Shown here: positions 376 through 62,689 of the stretch, piece by piece
How the letters are laid out: each line of letters starts with the position of its first letter
Numbering within the stretch: the stretch's first letter is position 1
Assembly (NCBI GenBank): GCA_050182275.1
Contig: JBFXCK010000002.1
Location: forward strand, 2,285 to 66,284
Source of the DNA: Dongiaceae bacterium
GTDB taxonomy: Bacteria > Pseudomonadota > Alphaproteobacteria > SHNJ01
Length of the DNA: 64,000 nucleotides
Direction: 5' to 3'
The notes under the pieces: model-generated
Seen by the model: only the letters and a program-made list of their open reading frames with translations
Databases searched by the model: none
Told to the model about the DNA's origin: nothing
Made by a program: the position numbers and the translations under genes

Positions 376-2679
376 ATGTTATCCCGCAATCTAGAACGCA
401 CCCTGCACCGCGCGATTGACGCTGCGACCGAGCGCCGTCACGAATTCGCGACCTTGGAGCATTTGCTATGGGCCTTGACCGAGGATCCTGATGCGTTGGC
501 GGTGATCCGTTCCTGCGGCGGCGACGTGGCCCGGTTGCGCCAGGTTTTATTGGAATATTTATTGACCAACATTCCGACCATCGCCTTAACTTCCACGGCC
601 AAGCCCACGGTTGCTTTTCAGCGTGTAATTCAGCGCGCGGTGGTGCATGTGCAATCGGCCGGCCGCGCCGAAGTGAACGGCGCCAATGTGCTGGTCGCGT
701 TATTCAACGAACCCGAATCGCATGCGGTCTATTATTTACAAAGCCAAGACATCACGCGCTTTGATGCGGTCAATTATTTATCGCACGGCATTGCCAAGGT
801 GCCGGGCGCGTCCAAGGCAAAAAGCGCCCCTTCAGGCGCGGCGGAAGAAACCTCTCAAGCAGAAAAAGATTCGGCTTCCAGCGCGCTGGCGGCCTATACC
901 GTTAATCTGAATGCCAAGGCGGCGGATGGCAAGATCGATACGCTGATCGGCCGTGCCGATGAAGTCGAGCGCACCATTCAAGTTCTATGCCGCCGCTCTA
1001 AAAATAATCCGTTATATGTTGGCGAGGCGGGGGTTGGTAAAACGGCGATTGCCGAGGGGCTGGCCTTACGCATTATAAAAGGCGAAGTGCCGGAAGTTTT
1101 ATCCAATGCGGTGATTTACGCCCTCGATATGGGCGCGTTATTGGCCGGCACGCGTTACCGCGGCGATTTTGAAGAGCGGTTGAAAGCGGTATTGGCCGAG
1201 CTGCAAAAACAGCCGCACGGCGTTTTATTTATCGATGAAATTCATACTTTAATCGGCGCGGGCGCCACGAGTGGCGGATCGATGGATGCTTCGAACTTAT
1301 TAAAACCCGCTTTGGCCAGCGGCGGTTTGCGCTGTATCGGTTCGACCACCTATAAGGAATACCGTAATTATTTTGAAAAAGACCGGGCGCTGGTGCGCCG
1401 CTTCCAAAAAATCGATGTGGCCGAGCCTTCGGTGGAAGACGCCTTTAAAATTCTGCAAGGTATTAAAGGCTATTATGAAAAGCATCATGACGTCACTTAC
1501 ACCACGCCCGCGATTAAGGCGGCGGTCGAGCTTTCCGCCAAATATATCGGCGACCGCAAATTACCGGATAAGGCGATTGACGTCATTGACGAAGCGGGGG
1601 CGGCGCAGAAAATGCGTAGCGCCGAAAATCGGAAATCGATTATCGATGTCACCGACATTGAAAATATCGTCGCCAAGATAGCGCGCATTCCGCCGAAATC
1701 GGTTTCAAGCGATGACCGCAAGGCGATGCAAAATCTGGAGGAAGATTTAAAACGCATGGTATTCGGCCAAGACCGCGCGATTGGCGCTTTGGCCAGCGCC
1801 ATCAAATTGGCGCGTGCGGGCCTGCGGGAAGGCGAAAAACCGATTGGCTGTTATTTATTCTCCGGCCCGACCGGCGTTGGTAAAACCGAAGTGGCCCGTC
1901 AATTGGCGCACATTATGGGGATTCAGCTAACCCGCTTTGACATGTCGGAATATATGGAGCGGCATTCGGTGTCGCGCCTGATTGGCGCCCCTCCCGGCTA
2001 TGTCGGATTTGAACAAGGCGGCTTGCTAACCGATGCGGTTGATCAGCATCCGCATTGCGTCTTGCTGTTGGATGAAATTGAAAAGGCCCATCCCGATTTA
2101 TTCAATATTCTGCTGCAGGTGATGGATCACGGTAAATTGACCGACCATAACGGTAAGACGGTTGATTTCAGGAATGTGATTTTAATTATGACCACCAATG
2201 CCGGCGCCGCCGACCTTGCCAAGCCGGGAATTGGTTTTGGAAACACCGTGCGCACCGGTGATGATGAAGAAGCGATCAAAAAAATGTTCACCCCTGAATT
2301 CCGCAACCGCTTGGATGCAATCATCCCCTTCGCTTCTTTAAGCGAGGAAAGCGTTCTCAAAGTGGTCGACAAGTTCATTTTGCAGCTGGAAGCTCAATTG
2401 GCCGACCGCCAAGTATCCCTCGAGCTATCTGCTGCGGCACGGCAAATCGTGGCGAAAAATGGATTTGATCCCCTTTATGGCGCCCGCCCCTTGGCCCGTT
2501 TTATCCAGGAAAAGGTCAAACAGCCTTTGGCCGAGCAATTGTTGTTTGGCGACCTGCGGGGCGGCGGCCATGTCAAAATTGACAGCGTCGATGGGAAGTT
2601 TACCTTTGATATCAAATCTTTGCCTAATAAAGCCCCATCCGATAAAAACTCCACTAGGCCAGAAGAACTGGTTCCTTAG
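376..2679 (+). CDS. clpA: ATP-dependent Clp protease ATP-binding subunit ClpA
   Basis: 767 aa with an N-terminal Clp repeat domain and two AAA+ modules ([10 protein letters not shown] and [13 protein letters not shown] Walker A motifs, [10 protein letters not shown] Walker B). It follows clpS. Confidence 0.95.
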
Positions 2680-2877
2680 GTGTGGCGCCCCCTTACTTCT
2701 CTGTAAGGCTGTTCAGCCATAAAATTTTTTTAAATTAGGCCACCCCATTTTACTTTTCTGGGGATAGGTAGCCATTACTCAAAGGGGAATAAGGGGAACT
2801 CGATTTTTTTCCTTTTCAATTATGATTAGCTGCGCTACAAACATATACTTAGGCAATAAAAACAAAGGCAGGCAATC

Positions 2878-5493
2878 ATGAAAAATCACCATAATAAGGG
2901 ATTTGGTGTTGGTTACGCCTTGGCCGTAATGGCTTTGGTAGCCGGCAGCAGCGTTTTAATGACTCAGCATATGAGCAGTGTCGCCCGTATGCAGGGGCGC
3001 ACGCAAGAAACTTTTAATGTGCAGCAAGCTTTGCAGCGCGCCGATGCTGAAATCAAACTAAGCATGCGCGAAGTAGTGGGGGGCATTGCTTATCCGCCCG
3101 CTTATAGCCGTCTTGATCAAGATGGCCAAACCATCACCTGGCCGCCGGCAGGGCGTTTTGCCAGCCGTCAATCGGCCGATGGCGGGTATTTGCCGAACAA
3201 TTTTGTCAATCGCGGCGATTCCCGCGGGCAATTTTTATATTGCGCTTATCGTAATAACACATCGCGGATTGATCCGACGATTGATCGTGATGGCAATCCT
3301 TTGCCGGCAAGCGATGCGCAAAACCGTATTTCTTTAAACAATGAAGCAATTGGCCGCGAACAAATCAGCGTAGCGCCGGCCTATGCGTTAATTGCGATGA
3401 ACGGTGCGGGCCAATATGGAATAGCTTGCGAAGATTTGTACCGCACCAATGAAGCGGGCGCGCAAGTGCGCCGCACCGCCGAGGAATTGAACGCTATCGC
3501 CAATGGCAGCCGTTTTATAATCGCCACCAACGATGAGGCTTTGGCGGGAGCCGCGAATAACCGGATCAATATTTTGGCCGGCACTGCCGGCAGCACATCG
3601 TGCGACGAAACCCGTGATAAATTGGTTTTCACCGTCGATCAAAACGGCATGACCCGTTTCATTTGCGTACCGGAAATTGCTTTCCCGGTCAGCGCGCATA
3701 ACCGCGATGGCGCCGGTGAAGGGATTTTGGTTAATCCGATCGAAAATGCCGATGTCGATAAGCCGTTTGAATTCCGGCGTATTCAAGGGATTGGCAATGT
3801 CAGCGTTACCACAGCGCCCGATGGCGGGATTTTGATTCAAGGCATGTCCGGTGAAGTTAATGCCCGCAATATCGGTGCAACCGGTCAAGATATTTTGAAT
3901 GTTGGCACCGATGGCGCCTTAGAGTTCCGGCGTTTGGAGGGCATCAATGGCCTTACCATTTTCCGCAGCCTAAGCGGTGAATTGATATTGGATGCCTCGG
4001 GCGCCATTGCCGGCGCTACCGAATTAGGCGTTAATATTCCTCTCACTACGGTTGCCGGCGAACAAAGCGTATTTGCGGGCAAAGTTGGCAACACTTTTCA
4101 ATTCCGCAAATTGGTTGGCAATAACGGCATCAATCTAACCAACGATACCGAAGGCAGAATCGTGGTTGGCATTGGCGGAACAACGCCGGGCGAATTATTA
4201 CAGCCTTTGGATTGTGATCCCATTACGCAAAAACTGCGTTGGAACACTAGTCTTAACCCGCCGCGTTGGGAATGCGCGCTTGATCAAGCCGGCGGCGGTG
4301 GCACCATTAACAATGCAGTCAATGGCGGCGGCGGCCAGGTGCAAGTATTCCGGAACATCACCAACGGCACTTTAAACTTCCGCAGCTTAACGGCAGGGCC
4401 GGGGATTGCTTTATCTCAGACCAATGATGTGATTACCATTGGCTTAAGCGGTGCGGTCGGGGGTGTAACGGTCGGCAGCACAGGCAGCGGCGCACGTTTA
4501 GTTGCCGAGGCTAATGGCCCGCAAAGCACTCTAACTTTCCGTAGTTTGGCGGCTTTGGCCGGCGGCGGCTTGGAAGTAAGCGATGGCAGCAATGGCACAA
4601 TCGCTTTTGGTTTACAAAGCTGTGCGGAAGGGCAAATCTTAGGGCGCATTGGTGGTACCTGGCAATGTCAAAACCCGCCGACAGGCGGAGGTGACGGCGT
4701 TAGCAATATTGTTTCTTGCAACAATCAGCAGACCCGTACCGCAGCATCGAATACCGCCTGTGGTAGCGCACGCCGGATTCAATTAAATACTTTTACCAAC
4801 AGCCCGCCCGCGCAAATTGCCGAACAGCTTAACACTCCTGGTTCTTGGGTGCCAGTTGGCTGCCGCGATTTGTTTGGAAACCGCATTAACACCTTTGCTT
4901 CGCAAATCTGGTGGGATCCGGCGGCAATTTATCCGGGCGCCAGTGTAACAGGTGCTTGGCGCACCTTCGCTGATAATAGCGCCAGATTCTGCGTCGATGG
5001 CACGCTGGTAGTTGCGCAAGTGGGAGGTTCGGGCACGCCCGGCACAATGACGATCGATTCGTTTGAGCAGACCTACCACATCGATGACAACATCGAAATC
5101 GCTCCCTTACTGCCCGGCAGATCATCGGCCACATCTTGGACCGACCTTGATCAAGCCAGATGGCGTACGGATGTAAGAAACGTTCAATTACGCCCAGGTT
5201 TGTGGAAAATCGATGTCTATGGAACGACATATATATGCAGCTCGGCCGATGCTTTCCAAACCACGCGGTTGCTGTTCCATGAAGACCGGCCAGCGAACGA
5301 TCCGAACCGTAAAACCGTCACACTTAAAGGCGCTAACTGCCCCGAGGGGAACGCGCCTTATAATATCTCGACTTTGGTGAGGGTGCCAGCCGATGGAAGA
5401 TTCGGCGTCATGTCGGTTCCCAGTAGCACCGGCGGTAATTTACAGCGTGTTGCCAATATCCAGGGTGTGACAGCTATACGCGTCGGCGATTAA
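2878..5493 (+). CDS. Large repeat protein of unknown function (paralogue 1); pseudopilin/PilX_N-like N-terminus and Cys-rich C-terminal domain
   Basis: Uninterrupted 871-aa ORF. A short basic leader is followed by G-F and a hydrophobic helix (KGFGVGYALAVMALVAGSSVLM). There are five F-R-x-L-x-x-G-x-G repeats and a conserved C-terminal domain shared with 5722..8424. The gene has its own terminator. Confidence 0.7.
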   Translation: MKNHHNKGFGVGYALAVMALVAGSSVLMTQHMSSVARMQGRTQETFNVQQALQRADAEIKLSMREVVGGIAYPPAYSRLDQDGQTITWPPAGRFASRQSADGGYLPNNFVNRGDSRGQFLYCAYRNNTSRIDPTIDRDGNPLPASDAQNRISLNNEAIGREQISVAPAYALIAMNGAGQYGIACEDLYRTNEAGAQVRRTAEELNAIANGSRFIIATNDEALAGAANNRINILAGTAGSTSCDETRDKLVFTVDQNGMTRFICVPEIAFPVSAHNRDGAGEGILVNPIENADVDKPFEFRRIQGIGNVSVTTAPDGGILIQGMSGEVNARNIGATGQDILNVGTDGALEFRRLEGINGLTIFRSLSGELILDASGAIAGATELGVNIPLTTVAGEQSVFAGKVGNTFQFRKLVGNNGINLTNDTEGRIVVGIGGTTPGELLQPLDCDPITQKLRWNTSLNPPRWECALDQAGGGGTINNAVNGGGGQVQVFRNITNGTLNFRSLTAGPGIALSQTNDVITIGLSGAVGGVTVGSTGSGARLVAEANGPQSTLTFRSLAALAGGGLEVSDGSNGTIAFGLQSCAEGQILGRIGGTWQCQNPPTGGGDGVSNIVSCNNQQTRTAASNTACGSARRIQLNTFTNSPPAQIAEQLNTPGSWVPVGCRDLFGNRINTFASQIWWDPAAIYPGASVTGAWRTFADNSARFCVDGTLVVAQVGGSGTPGTMTIDSFEQTYHIDDNIEIAPLLPGRSSATSWTDLDQARWRTDVRNVQLRPGLWKIDVYGTTYICSSADAFQTTRLLFHEDRPANDPNRKTVTLKGANCPEGNAPYNISTLVRVPADGRFGVMSVPSSTGGNLQRVANIQGVTAIRVGD

Positions 5494-5521
5494 GCCCTTA
5501 TCTAACTCTGTTCTTTATAAA

Positions 5522-5552
5522 AGGGGCGCTTTTTTAAGTGCCCCTTTTTTTG
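5522..5552 (+). terminator. Rho-independent terminator of paralogue 1
   Basis: aggggcgc / gtgcccct stem of 8 bp (one G-U), an 8-nt loop, then a T7 run. It starts 29 nt after the stop codon. Confidence 0.8.
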
Positions 5553-5721
5553 CCCATTTTTGGCGGGTCTTGGCAGGAAAATTAACCTTTCCTCAATAAT
5601 TGTCATTAATCTGTAACATTAGTCCTGTATTGTAAAAGATGACAAGTGGTTGTAATATAATCACGATTATGTTATTAAACTTATTAAGTATCTGATTTAC
5701 AACGAATATATAGGACGGGCC

Positions 5722-8424
5722 ATGAGAAGCAAAGTAAACACCCCCCTGGCGGCAAAAAGCTCCTTAAAGGAGTTCTTGCTTGGAAAAAATAGAAAATATC
5801 AACGCGGCATGATCGGTTATGCCATGGCGGTGGTGGTCGCAACCGCCATGGCCGGCGGCTTGATGATGAATAGTATGAGCACCGGCATACGCACCACCAA
5901 TGCAATTACCCGCTCCACCGACGCTAATAGCGTTTTACAGGCGGCACGGGTTCAATTGGCTCAATCCGCTAGTTTTGATAGCCTGGGCATTCCCGTTTCG
6001 GTGCCGGCGGAAGATAATCATATCCCTATGCGCTTTCCGGAAAACGATGATTTTCAAGAGCGTGCCCACAGCGAACAATCGGTAGTCAGCGCCGCCAGCT
6101 TCCGTGGGGAACAAATTATTTATGTCCCCTTTTATAACCGTAATTCAAATGAACCCAACGGCTATGTCAGGGGCAGGGTGGCTTCAACCCAAGTGGAGGC
6201 TTTAAACCGTCCGGTGTTTATGCTGATTCTGGGCGGACAAGATGGGGTGCAAACGCCTTATAACGATCCGAACACTTTTATGAATAGCGATGGCAGCATG
6301 CGTCCGGTTTCGGTATTAGCAGAACAATACCCGACCGACCGTTTTGCTGCGGCTACCATACAAGACGTTATGAATATTCAAGCGGCTAACGCCACGCAAA
6401 TGATCCGTGTGGCGGCGCAAGAAGAAGGCATGCCCCTAGGCGGCGCGCCCACCAGCACTTGCCCGGCGGCGACGCATAAATTGGTTTTTGCGGTTAACGC
6501 CAATGGCCAAACCGTGTTTGCCTGCGTGCCGGAACAAGACCCGAAAGTAACGGGAGAAAATATAATTCCGGAAACGGTAATGAACGGTGTTGGACAACTA
6601 TTCGCCGAGCGTATTTTTATTCCCAATGAACAAACCCCTGCTAATACGGTTAGCAAGCTGCGCTTCCGTTCAATTTTGGGCGGCCTCAATGTGAATGTTG
6701 GTCAAAGCGATGAGGCCGTGATGTTAAGCGTTAATGCCGAAAATGCCGGTCAAAACGGCGCCGGTATTTTCAGACAAGGCTTTAATGCGCAAGGTCATCA
6801 AACCATGCAGTTCCGCCGCTTGGTGGCGGGCGCGGGCGCTAGCGTACAAGAAGTGGGCGATACGATCGTTATCAGCGCCATGGGCTTGGGCGGCGGGCCG
6901 GTTGGTTTAACTGCGGTCAGCGCGCAACGTTTTGGCGATGATAATACGCATGCTATCTTCATGGGCGGTGACGGCACGCCCGGCAATCCGCTTTCTTTCA
7001 GTGATTTACGCGCTGGCGCTGGCATTGCCATGGGCCGCGGAAGTAAAGGCGAATTGATTATCGCCAATACCAGCCCGGCTTCAAGCGTTGAGGGTATTAA
7101 CGTCGGCGGCGGGCAAGATCCCAGCGTGACGGACGATAAGCCGGGAGCGAATGGCATTTATGCCGGGAAAGATGATGAAAACCGCCTGATGTTCCGGCGC
7201 CTTGTGGCTGGGCAGGGCATTAAAATATCCGCCAATAAGGATGATGAGGACAATGGTAAATCGGCCATTGTAATCGAGGTTGATGGTTCAGTCGGTGGCG
7301 TGGCGAATGCAACCAATATTGGTAGCGGCGCTTCGGTCTATGCCAATAATGCCAACGGCACTTTATCCTTCCGCCGCGTCAATGACGATGGCCAAGGTGT
7401 AACGGTACGTCAAGTCGGCGACAATGTTAGAGTAGGGGTTGATGTCGCCCAATTATCGCAAACCTTGAATTTAAGCCGCTTTGTGCAAATCGGCCAAGAG
7501 CAAGATCCGATCTTTGCCGCCTCACGTCCGGCGACGGCTTGCGAAGGTACGCAACGTTTAAGCTGGGATGGCACGGCCTTTGTATGTATGGCTCCGGCTG
7601 GACAATCTGGCGGCGGCGCAACGCCCTTGAGCAGCAATATCGTTTCTTGCACGAATGCGCAAACCCGCGGCGCTGCAAGCAGCGAAGCTTGCGGCAATGC
7701 GCGCCGGATTCAACGAGGCACTTTAACCACCAGCCCGCCCGCGCAAGTGGCGCTGCAAATGAACACACCCGGCTCGTGGGTGCCGATTGGTTGCCGTGAT
7801 TTATATGGCTCGCAAATTAACAGTTTTGCTTCGCAAATCTGGTGGGATCCAACGGCGACTTACCCCAGCTCCGGTGTGGCTGGCGCATGGATTACCTTTG
7901 CCGATAGTGGTGCTAGATATTGCGTCGATGGTACCTTAGTGATTGCTCAAGTCGGCGGCTCGGGTACGCCAGGCACCATGACGATCGATTCATTCGAGCA
8001 AACTTACTTTGTGGAAAACAATGCCGAAATCGCTCCCTTATTGCCTGGCAGATCATCGGCCGCATCTTGGACCGACCTTGATCAAACCAGATGGCGCACG
8101 GATGTACGGAACGTAACTTTGCGCGCCGGCTTATGGAAAGTGGATGTGTATGGCGGCGTATATATATGCGGCTCGGCCGATGCCTATCAAACTACGCATC
8201 TGTTGTTCCATCAAGACCGGCCGGTTAATGATCCGAACCGCAAAGTGGTGACGCTTAAATCGGCTAACTGCCCTGAAGGCAATGCGGCTTATAATGTCTC
8301 TACATTGGTTAGAGTGCCGGCAGATGGACGGTTTGGGGTTCAATCGGTGCCAGTCAGCACCGGCGGCAACTTGCAGCGGGTCTCGAATATCCAAGGAATC
8401 GTGGCGATCCGCGTCGGCGATTAG
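5722..8424 (+). CDS. Large repeat protein of unknown function (paralogue 2)
   Basis: 900-aa ORF with the same architecture as 2878..5493 (QRG-MIGYAMAVVVATAMAGG N-terminus, five F-R-x-L-type repeats). The C-terminal ~263 aa are roughly 80 percent identical to paralogue 1 by eye. Confidence 0.7.
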   Translation: MRSKVNTPLAAKSSLKEFLLGKNRKYQRGMIGYAMAVVVATAMAGGLMMNSMSTGIRTTNAITRSTDANSVLQAARVQLAQSASFDSLGIPVSVPAEDNHIPMRFPENDDFQERAHSEQSVVSAASFRGEQIIYVPFYNRNSNEPNGYVRGRVASTQVEALNRPVFMLILGGQDGVQTPYNDPNTFMNSDGSMRPVSVLAEQYPTDRFAAATIQDVMNIQAANATQMIRVAAQEEGMPLGGAPTSTCPAATHKLVFAVNANGQTVFACVPEQDPKVTGENIIPETVMNGVGQLFAERIFIPNEQTPANTVSKLRFRSILGGLNVNVGQSDEAVMLSVNAENAGQNGAGIFRQGFNAQGHQTMQFRRLVAGAGASVQEVGDTIVISAMGLGGGPVGLTAVSAQRFGDDNTHAIFMGGDGTPGNPLSFSDLRAGAGIAMGRGSKGELIIANTSPASSVEGINVGGGQDPSVTDDKPGANGIYAGKDDENRLMFRRLVAGQGIKISANKDDEDNGKSAIVIEVDGSVGGVANATNIGSGASVYANNANGTLSFRRVNDDGQGVTVRQVGDNVRVGVDVAQLSQTLNLSRFVQIGQEQDPIFAASRPATACEGTQRLSWDGTAFVCMAPAGQSGGGATPLSSNIVSCTNAQTRGAASSEACGNARRIQRGTLTTSPPAQVALQMNTPGSWVPIGCRDLYGSQINSFASQIWWDPTATYPSSGVAGAWITFADSGARYCVDGTLVIAQVGGSGTPGTMTIDSFEQTYFVENNAEIAPLLPGRSSAASWTDLDQTRWRTDVRNVTLRAGLWKVDVYGGVYICGSADAYQTTHLLFHQDRPVNDPNRKVVTLKSANCPEGNAAYNVSTLVRVPADGRFGVQSVPVSTGGNLQRVSNIQGIVAIRVGD

Positions 8425-8446
8425 TTAAGGGGAGGGTATAGGGAAG

Positions 8447-8476
8447 GGCCGGTGGCGACACCGGCCTTTTTCTTTT
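8447..8476 (+). terminator. Rho-independent terminator of paralogue 2
   Basis: ggccggtg-gcga-caccggcc hairpin followed by tttttctttt. Confidence 0.8.
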
Positions 8477-8601: not shown

Positions 8602-9243
8602 ATGGATATCAAATTCGATCTACGCGTGGTTGAGTTATTGTTCTCACGAGTGTGCCATGATTTAGTTGGCCCCGTTGGCGCTGCTTTGAATGGCGTTGAA
8701 TTGCTGGAAGAATATGGCGGTGAGATGGCCGATGAAGCATTGGGCTTGCTTGGCAATAGCGCACGGGTGGCTTCACGCCGTTTAAAAGTGTATCGCGTGG
8801 CTTATGGGATGGCGGCTGGCGCTGCGGTATCATCTTTGGCTGATGTGCGCTCGCTCGTACAGGAATTTATCGAAGGCAGCAAAGTTACCCTCGATTGGCC
8901 CGATTCGGCGATTCCGCAAATTGCGGTCGACCGTAACGGCATTAAGTTGATTTTAAACACCATGATTTTGGCGGCCGAATGTTTACCACGCGGTGGCGCC
9001 ATCGGTTTTCGCATCGAGCCGGATGGCAATAACAGCAAATGCACTATTACCGCCAAGGGCCAAGGCGCCCGCCTGGTCGATGGGGTAGCTGAAGCCATGC
9101 AGCCGGATGCGCAAATCGACCGGCTTGATCCCCGCACGGTGCATTCTTATTATTTAGGCCGCTTCGCCCAAGTGCATCAAGCTAACCTAACCCGCACCGA
9201 TCAGCCCGATTTGGTGACCTTTACCGGCCAGATTAATTCCTAG
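8602..9243 (+). CDS. chpT: Histidine phosphotransferase ChpT (CckA-ChpT-CtrA phosphorelay)
   Basis: 213 aa. The N-terminal motif LLFSRVCHDLVGPVGAALNGVELLEE matches the ChpT/HPTransfase His box as I recall it, followed by a pseudo-HK C-terminal fold. ctrA is present in the same window. Confidence 0.75.
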   Translation: MDIKFDLRVVELLFSRVCHDLVGPVGAALNGVELLEEYGGEMADEALGLLGNSARVASRRLKVYRVAYGMAAGAAVSSLADVRSLVQEFIEGSKVTLDWPDSAIPQIAVDRNGIKLILNTMILAAECLPRGGAIGFRIEPDGNNSKCTITAKGQGARLVDGVAEAMQPDAQIDRLDPRTVHSYYLGRFAQVHQANLTRTDQPDLVTFTGQINS

Positions 9244-13239: not shown

Positions 13240-15678
13240 ATGCCCGAGCCGTCTAAAACGACTTTATTTCCCGTTCTGCCATTGCGCGATATTGTGGTGT
13301 TCCCGCATATCTCAGTGGTGCTGTTCGTCGGGCGGGAAAAGTCGATTAACGCGATCGAAGACGTGCTGCAAGACGACCGCCGGATTTTTTTGGCGACCCA
13401 AGTGAATGCCGCGCAAGACGATCCCGAAAATAAAGATTTATATAAAGTCGGCACGATCGCCGAAATCGTCAAGGACACCGAAAGCGGCCGTCCCAATATT
13501 GCGCGCCTGCCCGATGGCACGGTAAAAGTGATGGTGCGCGGCTTGCAACGCGGCCGCATCGCCGATTTTGTCGAACATGCCCAGTTCTTCCAAGCCTATG
13601 TCGAACCGCAGCCCGAGGAGGAAAATTCGGATGCCGAGGTAACCGCCATGGTGCGCGCGCTTATCGGCCAGTTCGACCAGTATTTAAAACTCAATAAAAA
13701 ATTCACCCATCCGGGCGAAATCCTTTCGGCCCTGGCTGAAATGAACGATCCCAGCATGATTGTCGATACCATTGCCTCGCATTTGGTGTTGAAAATCGCT
13801 GAAAAGCAATCGCTGTTAGAAACCCACGGCTTGATCGCGCGGATTGAAAAAATCTTCGGCTTCATGGAAGGCGAAATCGGCGTATTGCAGGTTGAAAAGA
13901 AAATCCGCAACCGCGTCAAGCGGCAAATGGAAAAGACCCAGCGCGAATATTACTTGAACGAGCAATTAAAGGCGATTCAAAAAGAATTGGGCGAAGGCGA
14001 AGATGGCCGCGATGAATTGTCGGAACTTGAAGCCCGCATCAAAAAAACGCGCCTTTCGAAAGAAGCCCGCGAAAAAGCCACATCCGAATTAAAGAAGCTG
14101 AAATCGATGAGCCCGATGTCGGCCGAAGCCACCGTGGTGCGCAATTATTTGGATTGGATTCTGTCGATCCCCTGGCGCAAAACCACGCGCATTAAAACCG
14201 ATATTGTCGAAGCCGGCAAGGTATTAGACCGCGATCACTTTGGCTTAGAAAAAGTCAAAGAGCGGATTTTGGAACATTTGGCGGTGCAAGTGCGCACCAA
14301 GAAAATGCGCGGGCCTATTTTATGCCTGGTTGGCCCGCCCGGCGTTGGTAAAACCTCGCTTGGCAAATCTTTGGCCGAGGCGACAGGGCGCAATTTCGTG
14401 CGTGTGTCGCTCGGCGGCGTGCGTGATGAGGCGGAAATCCGCGGCCACCGGCGCACCTATATCGGCTCGATGCCGGGCAAATTAATTCAGGCGATGAAAA
14501 AGGCAAAATCATCGAATCCATTATTTATGCTGGATGAAATCGACAAAATGGCCTCCGACTGGCGGGGCGATCCGGCAGCGGCCTTGCTAGAGGTGTTGGA
14601 TCCTGAGCAAAACAGCAATTTTAACGACCATTATCTCGAAGTCGATTATGATTTATCGGATGTGATGTTCATTACCACGGCCAATACCTTGCGCATGCCC
14701 CAGCCTTTGCTGGACCGGATGGAAATCATCCGCCTGGCCGGTTATACCGAAGAAGAAAAACTGGAAATCGCCAAACGGCACTTGCTGCCTAAAGTGGTGA
14801 AAGCGCATGGCGTTAAAAATGAGGAATTCAAAGTCAGCGATGCCGCGATTATCGATGTGATCCGCTATTACACGCGGGAGGCGGGCGTCCGTAATTTGGA
14901 GCGCGAATTGGCGACACTCGCACGCAAAGCGATTAAAGAAATCTCGGTGCGCAAAATCGACCGTGTTTCGGTTACGCCGAAGAGCTTGGAAAAATTCCTT
15001 GGCGTGCGCAAATTCCGCTATGGCGAGGCCGAGCTGGAAGATGCGGTTGGCGTTACCACCGGCTTGGCCTGGACCGAAGTTGGCGGCGAATTATTATCAA
15101 TCGAAGCCGTGATGGTGCCGGGCAAGGGCAAGATGCAAATCACCGGCAAATTGGGCGATGTGATGCAGGAATCGGTGCAGGCGGCGGCGTCTTTCGTGCG
15201 CTCGCGGGCTACCAAATTCGGCATCAAGCCGCCTTTATTTGAAAAGCGCGATATCCATATCCACGTGCCTGAAGGCGCAACGCCAAAAGACGGCCCCTCG
15301 GCCGGCGTGGCGATGGTGACTTCCATCGTTTCGGTCTTAACCGGCATTCCGGTGCGTAAAGACGTGGCGATGACGGGTGAAATTACTTTGCGCGGCCGCG
15401 TCTTGGCCATTGGCGGCTTGAAGGAAAAATTGCTGGCGGCATTGCGCGGCGGTATTAAAACCGTTCTCATTCCGCAAGAGAATGAAAAAGATTTGGCCGA
15501 AATTCCCGATAATGTGAAAAAAGAATTGAAAATTATTCCGGTTTCCACGGCTGATGAAGTTCTTCAGCATGCCTTGGTTAGCCAGCCGATCGCCATTGAA
15601 TGGACCGAGCCGCCGATTGAATCGGTACCGGCCAAAGATAAAGGCGATGAAGATTCCTCCGGCCTGACCACGCATTAA
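13240..15678 (+). CDS. lon: Lon protease
   Basis: 812 aa with an LonN domain, AAA+ motif GPPGVGKTS and the proteolytic Ser motif PKDGPSAG. Confidence 0.97.
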
Positions 15679-15784
15679 TCATTTTCGACCTGGATAGATG
15701 GCTTTTGAAGGGCTAAAAACCCTCCAAAACCAATGGCTTGCCAAAGTTATCCCCAAAAAAGCATAGGAAAACCTAGTCCGATTG

Positions 15785-15812
15785 TTGACGGCGGTAAAAA
15801 GAGCCTTAGAAT
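15785..15812 (+). promoter_or_regulatory. Candidate sigma-70 promoter of hupB
   Basis: TTGACG, a 16-nt spacer, then TAGAAT, about 85 nt upstream of the hupB ATG. Confidence 0.45.
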
Positions 15813-15896
15813 CCGCCGTATTCCTGTACCCTGATTTAATATGTAAATCAGGCGTGTTCAGGTAACCCTGTGTTCTACCCCAAAGGAGGGGATATC

Positions 15897-16169
15897 ATGA
15901 GCAAAAGTTCTTTGATCGAAGCAGTAGCAAAAGAAACCAGCCTCTCAAAGGCCCAAATCAGTGAAGTGTTGGAAGCTTTCGCCACCACCATCACCAAGTT
16001 CTTGAAGAAGGGCGAAGAAGTAAACTTCCCCCCGATCTGCAAGATCATCGTCGCCAAGCGCCCGGCTTCCGTAGGCCGTAACCCGCGCACCGGCGAAACC
16101 ATCCAAATCAAAGCCCGCAAGCAGCCCAAGTTCAAAGCTGCCAAAGCTTTGAAGGATGCCTTGAACTAA
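15897..16169 (+). CDS. hupB: DNA-binding protein HU
   Basis: 90 aa with the HU/IHF signature (GRNPRTGETIQIKARKQPKFKAAKALKDAL). The ATG at 15897 is preceded by aaggagg. The lon-hupB-tRNA-Val synteny supports the call. Confidence 0.9.
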   Translation: MSKSSLIEAVAKETSLSKAQISEVLEAFATTITKFLKKGEEVNFPPICKIIVAKRPASVGRNPRTGETIQIKARKQPKFKAAKALKDALN

Positions 16170-29603: not shown

Positions 29604-30815
29604 TTACAAAAACTGTTTAAGCTTGTTCCATACGCTGGTGCTGCCTAGGTAAAAGGTAGCTTCTGCCGTCATGCCGTCCAATAACGGATAATTTTGATCG
29701 CGGGCGCGGATTTCTTTTTCAACGCTGCGGATAATGAAATGTTTGGCCGGTTTTTCACCAAAGCGGGGAACGGCGGCATCTAGTTCCCGCTCCACGGTGC
29801 CGGTAACAGTGGCGAAAGCGGCAGTCGGGCGCGGTTGCAGGCGCAAATGGGCGCGGGTGCCGGGGGTAATTTGAGTTAAAGCCGGGTCAACAAAGGCTTC
29901 AAAGAACACCGTATCGGGTTCAGGGGATAGGGTGGCCACCACCGTCCCGGCCGCCACTTCTTGATTCGGCGCAACGGAAAAACGCACAATTCCATCAGCA
30001 GGGGCGACAACAATTAAAGAGGCCTGTTCGATTTTAATATCGGCTAAACGGGTGGCGGCTTCTTTTAGGTTTTTGGCAATAACCCGGTTTTCAGCGGCCA
30101 AAGAAGCGGCGCGGTCGGCGCTTAAACGTTCGATCCCGCGCTCGGTTTCCTGGCGGCTTTTAATAAGAGCGGCTTGCTGCTGCACCCAGGATTGGCGTTC
30201 GGCGACCAGAGCGGCCTGGCGACGGCTTTGGGTAGCCGCCCATTCTTCCGGCGAGTCGGGATCGCCCGGAATATTTACGATCACCGAGGGGCGTTCCGGC
30301 TGGTCTTTCAAGCGTTTATCGACATTGGCAATGGAAGAGAGGATTTTATCCTCGGCTTCTTGCAGGGGCGCCAGACGGTCTTGCAATTCGCTGAGGCGGC
30401 GGGTGAATTCCTCTTGCCGCGCTTGATACAACTCATATTGTTCTTGCTTGAATTGTTCGGGCAAGTCGGTCGGCAATACCAATTCCTGGCCGGTCATTTC
30501 GGCTTCAAGGCGGGCTTGCTGAGCTTCGATCAGCAGGATTTGATCTTGCAGATCTTTGGCTTCCTGCTCCAAATCGGGACGCTGCAGACGCAATAAAGGA
30601 GCGCCTTCTTTTACAAGAGTTTCCATGCTCACCAGCGGCGCTATGAGGCCGGGCAAAGGAGCTTTAATTTCTTGCGGCGGCAGAGTTGCAATCACGCGCG
30701 CCGGCATGACTTTCACTTCCTCCACTTGCAGCCAAAAAACCCCCGAACCAATCATGGCCGCCAGCAAAAGCACGACAATAATGTTCAAAGGAAGGAAAGG
30801 GGAAAAACGGGGCAT
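29604..30815 (-). CDS. HlyD-family membrane fusion protein
   Basis: N-terminal TM segment (LNIIVVLLLAAMIGSGVFWL), a lipoyl-like hairpin (KAPLPGLIAPLVSMETLVKEGAPLLRL), a long coiled coil and a C-terminal beta-barrel. The start is set to the MPRFSPF ATG at 30815, 8 nt after the upstream stop. Confidence 0.75.
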   Translation of the reverse strand: MPRFSPFLPLNIIVVLLLAAMIGSGVFWLQVEEVKVMPARVIATLPPQEIKAPLPGLIAPLVSMETLVKEGAPLLRLQRPDLEQEAKDLQDQILLIEAQQARLEAEMTGQELVLPTDLPEQFKQEQYELYQARQEEFTRRLSELQDRLAPLQEAEDKILSSIANVDKRLKDQPERPSVIVNIPGDPDSPEEWAATQSRRQAALVAERQSWVQQQAALIKSRQETERGIERLSADRAASLAAENRVIAKNLKEAATRLADIKIEQASLIVVAPADGIVRFSVAPNQEVAAGTVVATLSPEPDTVFFEAFVDPALTQITPGTRAHLRLQPRPTAAFATVTGTVERELDAAVPRFGEKPAKHFIIRSVEKEIRARDQNYPLLDGMTAEATFYLGSTSVWNKLKQFL

Positions 30816-30823
30816 GGGCTTGC

Positions 30824-32785
30824 TCAATTGAAATGCCCGCGCACGGCGGCGGCAATATCGCCTGGCGCGCCCTGCTGTTCGATGCGCCCTTGGTGCAGCC
30901 AATAAGCATCCTCGCACAAGGCTAAAAGCGAAAGGCGGGAGGTTAAAATAATCAAGGTTGGTACTTTGCCGGATAATTTTTGCAAAAGCGCCTCTTCTTC
31001 GTCTTGCGGCAAGGCGGGCAGGCCTTCATCCAAAATCAAGACGCTGGGTTTTTGGCACAGGGCGCGGGCAAGGCGCAAAAGCTGCCATAGACGGCTGTTT
31101 AAATGCAATCCGCCGGGCCCAAGCTTGGTATAAATTTCCTGTGGCAATCTTTTTACCCAGCTTTCTAAATTAGCCAGGCGCAAAGCCGCCATGACTTCAG
31201 CATGGCTGTGAATGGAAGCAGGGCTTAAATAATCGAATATAGCGCCGTTGAAATTTTCCTCTTCCCCTGCCGTAAGAAGCTGAATTTGCCGGCGCCACTG
31301 AGGGGCCAATTCTAGGAAGGAATAGCCATCCAGGCGCAACTGGCCGGTGCTGGGTTCATAAAAACCCGCCAAAACTTTCGCTAAGCAAGTCTTGCCAGAA
31401 CCGGCTTGGCCATAAATACCGGCGACGCCCGGCTTAAAGCTTAAATTAATCCGCTGTAAAATTTGCGCTTCGGCGTGAAAGGCGAAGCTGGCATTATCCA
31501 GCGTTAGAAAGCCCTGTACATTTTCCGCGGGCTGAATATTGGCCTGGGGTTTTTTGTATTGAAACAAATGGGCGCTTACTTGGCGAAGCTTGATTTCTTC
31601 CCACCAAACGCGGCGCAGCTTAGTGGTCCCGGCAAAGGGGGAAAGAATAATGTAAAACAACAATCCTGATCCCAGCATTTGGCCCAAGCTCAAGCTTTCC
31701 GCCATAAACATCCGCCCCGCCAGCAACACGCCAATCGCCACCGCCATTACCACCGTAAAGCTTTGCAAAAACACGCTAAGACGAATGGCAAGCGGGGTTG
31801 TATTGGCGGTTTCATTTAAAGGCTGGTTGTCATCAAAAGCCTGGCGGCGCCATAAGCGCTGCAATAGTGTTTTGCTATCAAAGCCGCTGGCGCCGGGATT
31901 TTCCCGCAAATAATTTTCTACCATCCAGGTAGGCAGCAAGATTAAAGGCAATGCCGCCACCGCCACCACCGCCAGCGGCAGGGAAAGGGAGGCCAGGATC
32001 ACCAAGCCTAAAGCGCTTATTAGTATGTCCGCCGCTAAAATACTAAGAAGGGGGCGGTTTAAAATGGCGGCTTTTTTCATTTGCGCGGCCACAAAATCGC
32101 TAAAGCCGTTTTCTAACTTTGGCCAGGGAATATAGTGCAAACCTTCGCTTAAAAGCTGTTGATACGCATTTCGCGCTTGGCGCTTGGACCAATTAGCAGT
32201 GGCAAGACGCAATGACGATAATAAAATATAGAATACTCCGCCCATTAAAGTCGCAATGCCCAAGCTCATCCAAGTTTGCCCGGCGCGCAAAGCAAGCACG
32301 TGATCGGTCAATACAATGGCGCCGCCTGCCAGGCTTAAACGCAAGCCGCCCAATAATAAGGACAAGCCGAACATTTCAGCGGCGCCTGCTTCCGGCAGGG
32401 CGGGGGTTTTATCGGGAGCCAGACGGGTATTAGCTGCCGTGATGGGGCGCAACGCTAAAATAAGATCGGTTGGCGCCAGCGAGGTTTCTTGGCCCGGTAA
32501 AATCAATTCGGCTTGGCCATTGCGCCAGGCGATAAAAGGGGTATTAGCGAAATCGGGCACCCATTCGGCTACCGGCTTAACAATCGTGGCATAGCCCCAG
32601 GCCTTGGCCATTTGGGTTAAATCGTCATTGGCGGTATGGGGCAGGCGCACCGGCTCCTTGCGGCCATAATAGCGGTCAAGGGCGGCCAGGCATTCGGCGA
32701 AACTGCCGGCATCGAGCGTGGGCGGCAGATTCTGATTTTCCGCCGCTGCCGCTTCTTGCACCATTAAAGTAAAAGATTGGGTCAT
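30824..32785 (-). CDS. ABC half-transporter (type I secretion-like) with an N-terminal C39-like domain and a degenerate NBD
   Basis: 653 aa. The N-terminal ~150 aa resemble a peptidase C39-like domain, followed by a TMD and an NBD. Walker A is GQAGSGKT and Walker B is VLILDE. The signature reads LNSRL and the H-loop reads TSRLS. Confidence 0.75.
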   Translation of the reverse strand: MTQSFTLMVQEAAAAENQNLPPTLDAGSFAECLAALDRYYGRKEPVRLPHTANDDLTQMAKAWGYATIVKPVAEWVPDFANTPFIAWRNGQAELILPGQETSLAPTDLILALRPITAANTRLAPDKTPALPEAGAAEMFGLSLLLGGLRLSLAGGAIVLTDHVLALRAGQTWMSLGIATLMGGVFYILLSSLRLATANWSKRQARNAYQQLLSEGLHYIPWPKLENGFSDFVAAQMKKAAILNRPLLSILAADILISALGLVILASLSLPLAVVAVAALPLILLPTWMVENYLRENPGASGFDSKTLLQRLWRRQAFDDNQPLNETANTTPLAIRLSVFLQSFTVVMAVAIGVLLAGRMFMAESLSLGQMLGSGLLFYIILSPFAGTTKLRRVWWEEIKLRQVSAHLFQYKKPQANIQPAENVQGFLTLDNASFAFHAEAQILQRINLSFKPGVAGIYGQAGSGKTCLAKVLAGFYEPSTGQLRLDGYSFLELAPQWRRQIQLLTAGEEENFNGAIFDYLSPASIHSHAEVMAALRLANLESWVKRLPQEIYTKLGPGGLHLNSRLWQLLRLARALCQKPSVLILDEGLPALPQDEEEALLQKLSGKVPTLIILTSRLSLLALCEDAYWLHQGRIEQQGAPGDIAAAVRGHFN

Positions 32786-33873
32786 CCGTATTTATTGCCT
32801 GCAGCTGCCAGCTTGCGGGCATATTTGGCCTTGGCTTTATTGAGAATATCCAATAATTCCACGCCGCTTTCCCCGCCAAGCCCTTTAATGTCTTCCCGGA
32901 TCACCGCTTGAATCCCGTCAATATGGGCGCGGATAAGTTCAAGAAGTTTTTCATCCAATTCCAGATGTTTGCTTTCGGTGTAATCGCATAAGGATTTGCC
33001 GAAAGTGGTGATTAAATTATAGCCGAACGTATCGCCCTGGCCGCGCAGTTCGTGCGCGATATTATAGATGGTTTGGTAGTATTTCCAAGGATTTTTAGGC
33101 TGTTTGGCCAGTTCGGTATATTGCCCCATAAGCTTTTCGACATTGCCTTGCACCCAAGTGGTGTAATCGTCTTTGCGCGAGCGCAATTGTTTTTCGGCGG
33201 CGCGAAGGAGCTTGGGATCGATTTTGCCCTCTTCTTCCACGCTTTTTGGCGCCAATTTCACCTTTAGTTTGTTGGGCAGATGGAAATACCAAATCTTGGC
33301 CTTGGTATTAAGCGTATCGGGATTTTTTTGAACAGTGATAATTTCACAATCTTCTTCTGAAACCAGGCGGCGCTCCTCGCCGGGATGGGGCAAAGCTTGC
33401 TTGCGCCGGTCGGGGCCGAAATAGGTGCCGCTATGCAGGAAATGATTGGGCGCCTCGATCAAGGCTTCTAGGCGTTGAGTGACGGTGGAAATGGAATAGG
33501 GTTTGGTCAAAAAGTCATTGATACCCAAATCACGGGCTTCTTCAACGGTATGGCGGCTGACATCGCCGCTGACCGCGATAAAGGGTATATAGCGGTCGGG
33601 CGATTCTTCGGATCTGCGTAACCAACGCAATAACATCGCACCGCTAACGGGGAGCATCAGCCAGTCGGCCATAATTAAATCAATTCCGCAATCGCCGGGG
33701 GAAGGGGCGGTAATCGCCGCGGTTTTCAGCTGCTGAATCGCTTCGCTGCCGTCATGAGCAATCAAAAGCTTGCCCACCTTTAAGGCGCGTAAAACAGACA
33801 CTAGCGTGTTGCGTGAAAACTCATCATCATCGACGACTAGCACGGAAAGTTTTTCTAGATTATAATTTGCCAT
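32782..33873 (-). CDS. Response regulator: receiver domain, Arg-rich linker and C-terminal HPt-like domain
   Basis: Canonical REC motifs (VLVVDDDE, LIMADWLM, AVSG, TKP). The C-terminal IAHELRGQGDTFGY matches the HPt H-x-x-[KR]-G motif. Its stop overlaps the ABC gene start by 4 nt. Confidence 0.75.
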   Translation of the reverse strand: MANYNLEKLSVLVVDDDEFSRNTLVSVLRALKVGKLLIAHDGSEAIQQLKTAAITAPSPGDCGIDLIMADWLMLPVSGAMLLRWLRRSEESPDRYIPFIAVSGDVSRHTVEEARDLGINDFLTKPYSISTVTQRLEALIEAPNHFLHSGTYFGPDRRKQALPHPGEERRLVSEEDCEIITVQKNPDTLNTKAKIWYFHLPNKLKVKLAPKSVEEEGKIDPKLLRAAEKQLRSRKDDYTTWVQGNVEKLMGQYTELAKQPKNPWKYYQTIYNIAHELRGQGDTFGYNLITTFGKSLCDYTESKHLELDEKLLELIRAHIDGIQAVIREDIKGLGGESGVELLDILNKAKAKYARKLAAAGNKYG

Positions 33874-55420: not shown

Positions 55421-56608
55421 CTATTGGAACAGTTTGAGTAAGTTTTGCGGGATTTGGTTGGCCTGCGCGATCATGGCGATGCCGGCTTCCTGTAAAATCC
55501 GCAGATTGGTGAACTTCGACATTTCGGCAGCCGTGTCGAGATCGAGGTAAGCCGAACGGGCGGCTTCCAGATTTTCGATAACGACGGCGACGTTCGAGGC
55601 GGTGGATTCCATCCGCGACTGAGCCGCGCCGATTTCCGATCTTGCATTCAAAAGCAAGTCGATGGCGATTGAAGAGGCGGCGTAGGCCGAATCGGCGCCG
55701 GCTTGCGTCGAGATATCGCTGTTGGTGATGCCTAAAGCAGTTGAGTTAACCGCTTTGACGCCGATGCTGATTTCATTGTTCGAGGCGCTAGCGCCAACCG
55801 CAACGCGGTAGCTTAAGTTGGTCACGCCGTTGATGGTGCCCGATAAGCTGCCCGAAGCGCTGGCGATAGTCGCTTGCGAGTTAAAGGAGGTGTTCAGCGA
55901 AATGGTGACATATCCGTTATCGCCAGCCACCTGCGTAGCGCCGGTGCCGAAGCTTCCGACACGGTATAAACGCACGGCGGTGCCGTTGGTTAAACTGTTG
56001 CCGGTGCTAAGCGTGCTATCCAAGGTTCCTTGATAGCTGGAGCCGCCGACTTGGGCGCGGAAAGTATAATCGCCGCTGGAATATTGCAAAGCCAGCAAGT
56101 TGTTGCCGGTCGAAGCCATGCCGCCAACGCCGATTTCCAAAACGCCGGCGCCGGTGCCGAAACCGGTAACCGCGCCAAGCAATTGGTTCGAATTGACCAA
56201 GGTAACGCTATTAAAGGTGGTTGAAGCCGCAACCCGGTCGATTTCACTGATCAGTTGCTGATATTCGGTGTTCAACATGCCGCGTTCAACGTTGGATAAT
56301 TGGTTAGAACCGGCTTGGGCGGAAAGCGATTTCAAGCGCACCAGCATGTCATAAACACGGGTCATCGCGCCTTCGCCGATTTGCAACATCGAGATTGCTT
56401 GAGTGGTGTTGACTTGAATTTGGCGGAAAGCGATAACGTCGGAGCGGATACGGGAACCGATCGCTAACGAAGCAGCATCGTCTTTTGCCGAGGCGACACG
56501 TTGGCCGGAAGATAGACGGGCCAAAGATTGCGTCATGTCCATGTCGGAGGCGACAAGGTTACGGTGCGCAATGCTTGCGGTTTGGTTGGTGATTAAATTT
56601 AAAGCCAT
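55421..56608 (-). CDS. Flagellin, class A, copy 2
   Basis: 395 aa with a conserved flagellin N-domain (LARLSSGQRVASAKDDAASLAIGSRI) and C-domain (IGAAQSRMESTASNV...QANQIPQNLLKLFQ). Confidence 0.96.
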   Translation of the reverse strand: MALNLITNQTASIAHRNLVASDMDMTQSLARLSSGQRVASAKDDAASLAIGSRIRSDVIAFRQIQVNTTQAISMLQIGEGAMTRVYDMLVRLKSLSAQAGSNQLSNVERGMLNTEYQQLISEIDRVAASTTFNSVTLVNSNQLLGAVTGFGTGAGVLEIGVGGMASTGNNLLALQYSSGDYTFRAQVGGSSYQGTLDSTLSTGNSLTNGTAVRLYRVGSFGTGATQVAGDNGYVTISLNTSFNSQATIASASGSLSGTINGVTNLSYRVAVGASASNNEISIGVKAVNSTALGITNSDISTQAGADSAYAASSIAIDLLLNARSEIGAAQSRMESTASNVAVVIENLEAARSAYLDLDTAAEMSKFTNLRILQEAGIAMIAQANQIPQNLLKLFQ

Positions 56609-56631
56609 GACAATAACCTCGCTTTAAGTTG

Positions 56632-62545: not shown

Positions 62546-62576
62546 GGTATCCTCCTACGTGGATTGTAAACTCTTT

Positions 62577-62678: not shown

Positions 62679-62689
62679 TTATAATTTTC

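Follow-up and report, generated by a model that had tools for sequence, protein, structure and literature searches.

The reuse of phage receptor-binding fibres as cell adhesins has, to our knowledge, been shown experimentally so far only in Bdellovibrio. The mosaic adhesive trimers (MATs) with which Bdellovibrio bacteriovorus grips its prey are a set of 21 chimeric fibres, 13 with a Peptidase_S74 domain (S74) and 8 without (Caulton et al. 2024, PMC10769870). They combine a conserved N-domain lacking structural homologues with variable tips, and their surface-anchoring partner is unidentified (PMC10769870). The intramolecular chaperone Peptidase_S74 forces phage fibres to trimerise, after which it is removed by cleavage (PMC10769870). 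The PR772/PRD1 spike protein P5 is a trimeric fibre composed of a shaft and a knob and resembles the adenovirus fibre (PMC5850374). For type IV filaments, large size and a hydrophobic position 5 have been proposed as the signature of the tip-forming GspK-type subunit. GspK-family subunits are confined to the tip, and Glu5 is dispensable in the subunit that starts a filament (PMC5207764). Among minor pilins, CofB forms a trimer located at the tip, and both CofB and TcpB provide examples of a pilus capped by such a trimer (PMC6048534). The subject of the present analysis is a tandem pair of genes, designated fibre gene 1 and fibre gene 2, within a 64-kb stretch of DNA (the window) from contig JBFXCK010000002.1 of a Dongiaceae bacterium. 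Their products join a leader and helix that align in register with pseudopilin N-termini, a repeat shaft homologous to phage fibre shafts and a Cys-rich tip (Table 1). With a probability of roughly 0.45, the pair is read here as mosaic homotrimeric cell-surface fibres that are probably displayed through a Glu5-less, GspK-type filament-tip route.

The two proteins are 39% identical to each other (BLASTP, E = 2e-168), and the sole strong hydrophobic segment detected in each by hydropathy analysis is N-terminal. The gene 1 protein starts with MKNHHNKG/FGVGYALAV and the corresponding segment of the gene 2 protein reads KYQRG/MIGYAMAV, the slash marking the putative cleavage site. Across the 19 aligned members of the family defined below, basic leaders of 8 to 29 residues end in an invariant Gly(-1) (19/19). 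Position -3 is Gln in 12 of the 19 sequences and position -2 is Ala, Ser, Arg or Lys, while the +1 residue is Phe in 14 sequences, Tyr in four and Met in one. The uncharged run that follows +1 is Gly/Ala/Met-rich, has a median length of 28 residues over the 19 N-termini and gives way to an amphipathic stretch. In an AlphaFold2 (AF2) prediction based on the 19-sequence alignment, residues 10-61 of the gene 1 protein form a single 52-residue helix, which corresponds to positions +2 to +53 when counted from the putative cleavage site. An earlier note, made from the sequence alone, had described in the pair a basic leader ending in Gly, a hydrophobic helix with a GYA[LM]AV core and an amphipathic stretch, and had remarked on a missing Glu(+5). 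The layout is conserved in 19 of 19 members, and the residue at +5 is Tyr, Ala, Gly, Thr or Ser, never Glu, in all of them. Because Gly(-1) and Phe, Tyr or Met at +1 are kept in proteins that are about 25% identical, the conserved positions suggest a processing or recognition site rather than bare hydrophobicity.

The resemblance to pseudopilins was evaluated through profile comparison. Aligned with hhalign to the N-termini of E. coli K-12 GspG, GspH, GspI, GspJ and GspK, the family profile places its Q-x-G-F on Q-R-G-F in register (P = 1.4e-4, probability 53%), with a score higher than those of 150 out of 150 column shuffles and 150 out of 150 block-preserving shuffles. E. coli GspK itself starts with MNNEQRG/VALLI. 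The profile also discriminates between classes of N-termini: the median score is 16.7 for ten E. coli pilin-like sequences, of which nine align in register at the Gly, versus 8.7 for 15 other anchors and signal peptides, four of them from the window (one-sided Mann-Whitney p = 5.7e-5). In absolute terms the similarity is weak, yet it is consistent. Searched against the PDB, a profile restricted to the N-terminus (window positions 2899-3060, gene 1 residues 8-61, plus family) returned no pilin. Its best matches are not significant (E ~1.4) and include the fusion peptide and heptad-repeat A of the paramyxovirus F protein, a trimer whose hydrophobic N-terminus, rich in Gly and Ala, likewise follows a basic site.

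The N-terminal helix and a globular core of about 200 residues make up an N-domain of approximately 300 residues, which is an unannotated, family-defining domain: no Pfam or NCBIfam model matches the N-domain of any member. Seven of its residues are invariant across the family (N126, P167, C242, K248, G257, C263 and E266, in gene 1 numbering). Among these, the two cysteines bracket a hairpin with the family motif C-x5-K-L-V-[FY]...F-x-C-V-P-E, delimited by C242-C263 in the gene 1 protein and by C247-C268 in the gene 2 protein, which the AF2 model of the N-domain shows as a beta-hairpin stapled by this pair. This model, computed from the 19-sequence alignment, is of medium confidence, with a mean pLDDT (predicted local distance difference test) of 63, and has a second helix at residues 218-239. 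Its best Foldseek match, the AtaA stalk, is not significant.

Beyond the N-domain, both proteins present the five-fold repeat array, the Cys-bracketed module and the Cys-rich C-terminus that had been described in the earlier note. The repeat core in both is x-L-x-F-R-x-L-x-x-G-x-G-I, which repeats of the family extend to x-L-x-F-R-x-L-x-x-G-x-G-I-x-[IV]...I-x-I, and a C-x3-Q-x-L...C hairpin module recurs in one to six copies per family member. The family profile (A1) matches P5 (PDB chain 6q5u_O) with E = 7e-5, a modest match, and a profile comprising the N-domain and the repeats (A4) matches 6q5u_O with E = 0.01 and 1yq8_A with E = 0.03; the segment aligned is GKILVKRISGGSGITVTDYGDEVEIEAS. 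A set of repeat-only proteins, in which 123 of 129 lack an N-terminal hydrophobic segment, matches phage tail fibres annotated as such, for example that of Pseudomonas phage Rollin, and the PHROG family 'major spike protein'. A tblastn search of the window shaft repeat against phage genomes gave no match, the matches to phage tail fibres being confined to these repeat-only relatives. On the basis of the P5 match and of the repeat-only proteins that match phage tail fibres and spike, the shaft is interpreted as a phage fibre module. The repeat itself is about 50 residues long, follows the pattern N-[IV]-G-x-G-x-x-[VI]-[FY]...L-x-F-[KR]-x-[LI]-x-x-G-x-x-[IV]-x-[IV] and occurs widely among the repeat-only proteins (P0006-P0150); these phage-like proteins reach 3459 residues and up to 24 repeat copies. 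No Pfam model describes it, and it yields only weak matches to PRD1_P5_C and NMB0315_dom_I.

Collagen G-X-Y runs are obligate trimers. Such runs occur in family members P0003 and P0005 and in the 963-residue product of the third fibre gene of locus L007, and Peptidase_S74 domains are found at the C-terminus of P0010, P0011, P0030 and P0032 (E ~1e-17). Given the S74 chaperones, the collagen runs and the P5-type repeat in its members, a trimeric fibre is the best reading of the family architecture from sequence. The suggestion in the earlier note of a giant fibre or adhesin is in keeping with the S74 and collagen of the relatives and with the P5 repeat; its novelty is lessened by the Bdellovibrio MATs, with which the concept is not wholly new (PMC10769870).

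The C-terminal regions of the pair follow a different pattern from the remainder of the proteins. A codon scan of the two genes reveals an amino acid identity of 20-40% up to approximately residue 610, followed by an abrupt step to 72-86% over the last ~265 residues (69-85% at the nucleotide level), and eight cysteines are conserved between the two proteins in the C-terminal ~290 residues. Strong constraint on a single ligand, or a tip exchange of older date, could explain this conservation. Between the paralogues, identical residues are specified by different codons in about half of the cases and long identical tracts are lacking, so that an exchange, if any, is not recent; the same observations, together with the lack of inverted repeats, rule out recent gene conversion and shufflon-type inversion. 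A conserved tip on a diverged anchor and shaft is the reverse of the pattern seen in phage fibres and MATs. The last ~110 residues of the gene 1 tip constitute a module common to P0002, P0003, P0039, P0012 and the product of a second fibre gene upstream of P0002 in locus L001 (alignment A7). No PDB match was obtained with a profile of this module, nor any Pfam match for the window tip, for P0039 or for four other proteins of the family. Other C-termini in the family belong to several unrelated tip types. Similarity in the last 200 residues is detected in only 29 of the 171 family pairs, and tip and N-domain identities diverge in both directions (81% versus 25% for the window pair, 53% versus 86% for P0020 and P0027); the family is therefore mosaic. 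At the extreme C-terminus, a short motif R-[VI]-[GS]-[DN] is encoded at window positions 5479-5490 and 8410-8421, and recurs in P0002, P0003, P0039 and at positions 3036-3047 of L001, in tips that are otherwise divergent.

The distribution of the family was established through an exhaustive HMMER search of a four-sequence profile against 1.84 billion representative proteins, which returned 683 matches. Hundreds of these involve the repeat region only, often in many stretches, and P0039 (325 residues) matches in the tip only. The family proper, in which about 370 N-terminal profile positions are matched starting from the protein's own N-terminus, comprises approximately 20 clusters at 50% identity, and all of its members come from uncultured alphaproteobacteria. 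The homologue survey envisaged in the earlier note thus returned a rare family, and one that is undescribed, as had been proposed there. A word-indexed search of 5.8 billion proteins retrieved only two distant relatives of protein 1, and none when queried with the N-domain alignment. Among species representatives of GTDB, the N-domain pattern was confirmed in one uncultured alphaproteobacterial metagenome-assembled genome (MAG), and a scan with tip-domain motifs found none. The N-domain was not found in 2.9 million viral contigs, where only a short repeat-region match was obtained. For the window proteins themselves, searches of Pfam, NCBIfam, PHROG and PDB sequences gave no match. RTX repeats, autotransporter barrels and sortase signals, including the LPXTG motif, are likewise undetected in them by Pfam or NCBIfam, in agreement with the earlier note. 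Contigs carrying near-identical proteins are labelled 'Dongiaceae bacterium' by NCBI. The Lon protein encoded in the window shares no more than 74% identity with any other protein in the collection searched, its best named matches being from MAGs of Stellaceae, Rhodospirillales and Alphaproteobacteria, which argues for a deep-branching uncultured alphaproteobacterium as the host. The Lon comparison lends no support to a Micavibrio-like predator identity.

Eight distinct related loci were analyzed, in which fibre genes form tandem arrays of two to four paralogues in housekeeping DNA, each gene with its own intergenic spacer (L004, L006 and L007 are one locus recovered three times). The usual site, taken by six of the eight, has rpoD-dnaG-yqeY (minus strand) on one side and carA-(SBP)-carB-greA (plus strand) on the other; the loci grouped with it are L001, L002, L005, L004/L006/L007, L010, L011 and L012. 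In L009, one family member is found at a contig end, adjoining cca and MoxR/BatA genes. The arrays of two to four genes in L002, L004/L007, L011 and L012 all sit in the yqeY-dnaG-rpoD/carA-carB gap, with the S74-type gene first wherever one is present. This arrangement suggests a stable 'fibre island' growing by tandem duplication. In L001, a cassette resembling a diversity-generating retroelement (13255-15914, minus strand) encodes a reverse transcriptase (RVT_1, 376 residues), a bAvd protein of 119 residues and a 230-residue open reading frame (ORF) product; it is located past carA-carB-greA, some 6 kb downstream of the two fibre genes.

The window array occupies a different site, namely the gap between clpA (376-2679, preceded by clpS; both assigned by reading translations) and chpT (8602-9243, belonging to a 90% identity cluster named 'histidine phosphotransferase family protein' by NCBI). 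A tRNA gene, tig, clpP, clpX and lon follow. The earlier note's account of tandem paralogues of 871 and 900 residues between clpA and chpT holds on the evidence of ORFs, BLASTP and flanking genes. So does its attribution to each gene of an AT-rich upstream region and a terminator of its own: both upstream intergenic regions have a GC content of 0.44-0.45 versus approximately 0.53 within genes, and both terminators consist of a hairpin and a T-run (z = -5.2 and -5.3), with none of 200 shuffled sequences being as stable. No sigma-70 consensus was found upstream of the fibre genes, and the four matches to the full CtrA box (TTAA-N7-TTAA) in the window represent no excess over chance, none of them being located upstream of these genes. 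GC content and third-position GC (GC3) of both fibre genes equal those of the neighbouring genes. A horizontal-transfer island or prophage origin for the pair is ruled out by composition and context. No capsid, tail, secretion or pilus genes were detected within 10 kb of the eight related loci. In light of the housekeeping flanks, the absence of capsid and tail genes and the host-like composition, the fibre genes are best regarded as resident cellular genes at housekeeping junctions, rather than prophage remnants.

In the preferred interpretation, the N-terminal helix would insert the protein into the inner membrane and the protein would trimerise along its shaft. Display would resemble that of a type IV filament, with the fibre acting as a Glu5-less, GspK-type 'first subunit' at the filament tip, as in CofB and TcpB, and the tip domain would bind a ligand carried by a surface or by another cell. 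Differences in anchor, shaft and tip among tandem paralogues could thereby provide a repertoire of specificities. Working in the manner of a tip pseudopilin is the best available account of how a fibre of about 900 residues might reach the surface of a diderm cell, and, because the anchor signature is readable and prepilin-like, it supplies a testable hypothesis for the export and holding of the fibre at a type IV filament tip. Trimerisation of the window proteins, leader cleavage, surface or pilus display and adhesive function are all put forward on computational evidence. A bolder version, in which these proteins would be 'fibre-pilins', that is, phage-type trimeric fibres on a Glu5-less pilin start that nucleate and cap a type IV filament, is considered doubtful. 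If it were true, the lineage, possibly predatory or epibiotic, would carry an exchangeable phage-like targeting repertoire on a retractable pilus tip, and the strong pilin-tip form would represent a new class of modular pilin.

Several results weigh against the filament-tip interpretation. The N_methyl, TIGR02532-type prepilin (NCBIfam), PilX_N and TadE/G hidden Markov models (HMMs) match none of the 19 family N-termini, even at E = 5-10, and on the window proteins PilX_N (PF14341), TadE-like (PF07811) and TadG-like (PF13400) give no Pfam match at E <= 1. The PilX_N-type or TadG-like N-terminus proposed in the earlier note is consequently not supported. Its idea of a pilin-type anchor survives in the pseudopilin-like layout and the in-register profile, and gains no support from the HMM searches, the fold search or the genes near the loci. 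Foldseek searches of the N-domain model (mean pLDDT 63) against PDB and BFVD identified neither a pilin nor any other fold at E <= 1e-3, and a single-sequence AF2 prediction of the full protein was uninformative (pLDDT 33). Neither the 64-kb window nor the surroundings of the eight related loci, up to a distance of 10 kb, yielded a prepilin peptidase, pilus, type II secretion system (T2SS) or Tad gene, and the window encodes no canonical G-F-T-L-I-E protein. The hhalign probability is just 53% and derives from a short motif and a hydrophobic helix. The window proteins contain neither S74 nor collagen, so that their trimeric state is extrapolated from the relatives and the P5-like repeat. Finally, a trimer of ~900-residue chains would need to pass through a secretin. 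Since the defining features fail, membership in the pilin family is not established.

Many of these same negatives count in favour of a trimeric mosaic fibre held by an uncleaved bitopic signal anchor or a trimeric bundle of transmembrane helices rich in small residues, which would stay tethered to the inner membrane and span or probe the periplasm, or would follow another surface route, with no pilus involved. The single N-terminal helix, with 21-28 uncharged residues of which approximately 50% are Gly, Ala, Ser or Thr, fits tight helix packing; no prepilin HMM matches, no pilin fold is detected and no pilus genes lie within 10 kb of any locus; and the anchoring partner of MATs is likewise unidentified (PMC10769870). 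The conservation of Gly(-1) and an aromatic or Met +1 at about 25% identity speaks instead for a recognition or processing site, the profile separates pilin-like N-termini from other anchors, and a tip tethered to the inner membrane lacks an obvious target in a diderm cell. An uncleaved anchor is thus judged somewhat unlikely. If the N-terminus were instead a Sec signal peptide of the ordinary kind, removed by signal peptidase I, the soluble fibre would be exported and bound outside through its N-domain as a MAT equivalent. In favour of this stands the division into S74 and non-S74 members, which is the same split as in MATs, where it accompanies a signal peptide, a conserved N-domain and variable tips (PMC10769870). 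The uncharged run, however, has a median of 28 residues, too long for a Sec h-region, and passes unbroken into the predicted 52-residue helix, alignment A4 reveals no conserved A-x-A-type site, and the conserved residues are found where the hydrophobic segment begins rather than where it ends, all of which make a Sec signal improbable.

Alphaproteobacterial gene transfer agents (GTAs) have fibre and spike genes away from their main cluster and are controlled by CtrA and ChpT. The location of chpT immediately downstream of the pair, and a shaft repeat common to the PRD1-type spike P5 and phage tail fibres, could hence be taken to indicate fibres or spikes of a virus-like particle (membrane-containing prophage, GTA or tailocin) whose other genes lie elsewhere. 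Yet the eight loci have conserved housekeeping flanks and no capsid, packaging or tail gene within 10 kb, the N-domain is absent from 2.9 million viral contigs, the composition is that of host genes and no full CtrA box lies upstream. A transmembrane N-terminus is, moreover, unfit for a particle assembled in the cytoplasm, and a particle origin is accordingly regarded as very improbable. The reading of the pair as surface fibres with a GspK-type filament-tip route is retained over these alternatives as the favoured one.

Table 1. Features of the fibre gene pair. Positions refer to the 64-kb window; residue numbers refer to the respective protein.
Feature	Position	Strand	Basis and remarks
AT-rich intergenic region upstream of gene 1	2680..2877	+	After clpA stop; GC 0.45 in 2501-3000
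Fibre gene 1, 871 aa, non-S74 member	2878..5493	+	ORF; identical protein P0001 on 3 public contigs; family profile E = 0
Gene 1 basic leader, aa 1-8 (MKNHHNKG)	2878..2901	+	Ends in invariant Gly(-1)
Gene 1 Phe(+1), 28 uncharged Gly/Ala/Met-rich residues and amphipathic stretch, aa 9-61	2902..3060	+	AF2 helix 10-61; hhalign
Gene 1 N-domain core, aa 62-266	3061..3675	+	Beta-rich, pLDDT ~90 at aa 150-230; ends in Cys242...Cys263 hairpin C-x5-KLVF-x-FxCVPE
Gene 1 shaft, five repeats of ~50-60 aa	3703..4617	+	Cores at aa 297/348/407/499/552; inserted Cys446-Cys466 hairpin module; regular expression and inspection
Gene 1 Cys582-Cys597 hairpin module (SCAEGQILGRIGGTWQC)	4621..4668	+	Recurrent C-x3-Q-x-L...C module
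Gene 1 C-terminal tip, aa 609-871, 6 conserved Cys	4702..5490	+	72-86% identical to gene 2 tip
Gene 1 terminator, 13-bp stem, 4-nt loop, T-run	5519..5548	+	dG -20.3 kcal/mol, z -5.2
AT-rich intergenic region upstream of gene 2	5549..5721	+	GC 0.44-0.45
Fibre gene 2 (P0004), 900 aa, non-S74 member	5722..8424	+	ORF; 90%-identity cluster mate 'hypothetical protein [Dongiaceae bacterium]' MGD9649979.1
Gene 2 leader, aa 1-29, ends Q-R-G	5722..5808	+	Family alignment
Gene 2 Met(+1) hydrophobic segment and amphipathic stretch, aa 30-82	5809..5967	+	Alignment A4; hydropathy peak aa 29-34; homologous to gene 1 predicted helix
Gene 2 N-domain core to Cys247...Cys268 hairpin (FACVPEQD)	5968..6534	+	Inspection, alignment
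Gene 2 shaft, five repeats	6589..7491	+	Cores at aa 313/362/424/489/548
Gene 2 Cys607-Cys622 hairpin module	7540..7587	+	Alignment of pair, inspection
Gene 2 C-terminal tip, aa 638-900	7633..8421	+	Pair alignment
Gene 2 terminator, 15-bp stem, 4-nt loop, T-run	8440..8473	+	dG -29.8, z -5.3

Elsewhere in the window, a group of minus-strand genes (29604-33873) encodes an HlyD-like protein of 437 residues, an ABC transporter of 653 residues and a receiver-domain protein of 363 residues, possibly forming a type I secretion unit. A link between the fibres and these genes resembling a type I secretion system (T1SS; 29.6-32.8 kb) is unsupported, since they are 21 kb apart, the fibre anchor is N-terminal and the fibres carry no RTX repeats. 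A flagellar cluster, assigned from reading translations only, extends over positions 37487-63940 and comprises fliI, a Pro/Ala-rich protein of 557 residues, flhG/flhF-like genes, flhA, a sigma-54-type activator, motA-like, fliG, fliF, flgE, flgD, fliK-like and fliD genes, as well as flagellin paralogues in two tandem pairs (55421-57846 and 61307-63940). The window also contains nuo genes and a CtrA-like regulator.

The family defines an unannotated domain of ~300 residues and a widespread phage shaft repeat lacking a Pfam model, and would constitute an independent alphaproteobacterial version of phage-fibre reuse. The tandem arrays suggest cell-cell targeting, be it in predation, epibiosis or host attachment, in a deep-branching uncultured lineage. 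In practice, the organisms are uncultured and the evidence is computational.

Compared with described systems, the window proteins share with trimeric autotransporters and RTX-type T1SS adhesins the condition of long, repetitive and probably trimeric surface fibres of Gram-negative cells, but they have no YadA-type barrel, RTX nonapeptides or T1SS-type C-terminal features, and their anchor is N-terminal. The likeness to GspK, CofB and TcpB resides in the basic leader ending in Q-x-G, the hydrophobic +1 residue and the long N-terminal helix, as well as in the large size and the lack of Glu(+5) that are found in GspK. The N-terminal profile aligns in register, and CofB and TcpB offer a precedent for trimeric tip adhesins. 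Unlike those proteins, the fibres match no prepilin, PilX_N or TadE HMM, have no pilin fold detected in the N-domain model and are not encoded in pilus or T2SS operons; they are also two to five times larger and bear phage-fibre shafts, and CofB and TcpB keep Glu5. With P5 (PDB 1yq8, 6q5u) they have in common the repeat x-L-x-F/V-[KR]-R-[IL]-x-G-G-x-G-I-x-V-x-x-x-G-D-x-[IV]-x-I, the collagen-like runs and C-terminal knob-type tip present in relatives, and the logic of a trimeric fibre. P5 and phage tail fibres attach to the virion through their N-termini and are products of phage genomes, whereas the fibres described here have a pilin-like membrane N-terminus and are encoded in housekeeping DNA. 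P5, furthermore, has one recognisable repeat unit, versus five in each window protein, and the window tip is without a match.

The closest parallel is with the MATs, which are likewise a chromosomal multigene family built from phage tail-fibre and tailspike modules, divided into S74 and non-S74 members and fitted with swappable tips. The N-domain of MATs is a beta-rich domain of ~130 residues following a signal peptide, whereas that of the present family spans ~300 residues and includes a pilin-like helix of ~52 residues. The MAT fragments available in the PDB show no sequence match to this family. Considering the ~300 residues and the initial 52-residue helix, and with MATs represented in this comparison by their description and by PDB fragments, it is unlikely that the two N-domains are the same. 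Hosts and genomic arrangement differ as well: MATs belong to Bdellovibrionota, while this family is found in uncultured alphaproteobacteria, as tandem arrays at one housekeeping locus. No alphaproteobacterial equivalent of MAT fibres was found described in the collection of papers searched. The family repeats the logic of MATs in another phylum, with a different N-terminal module.

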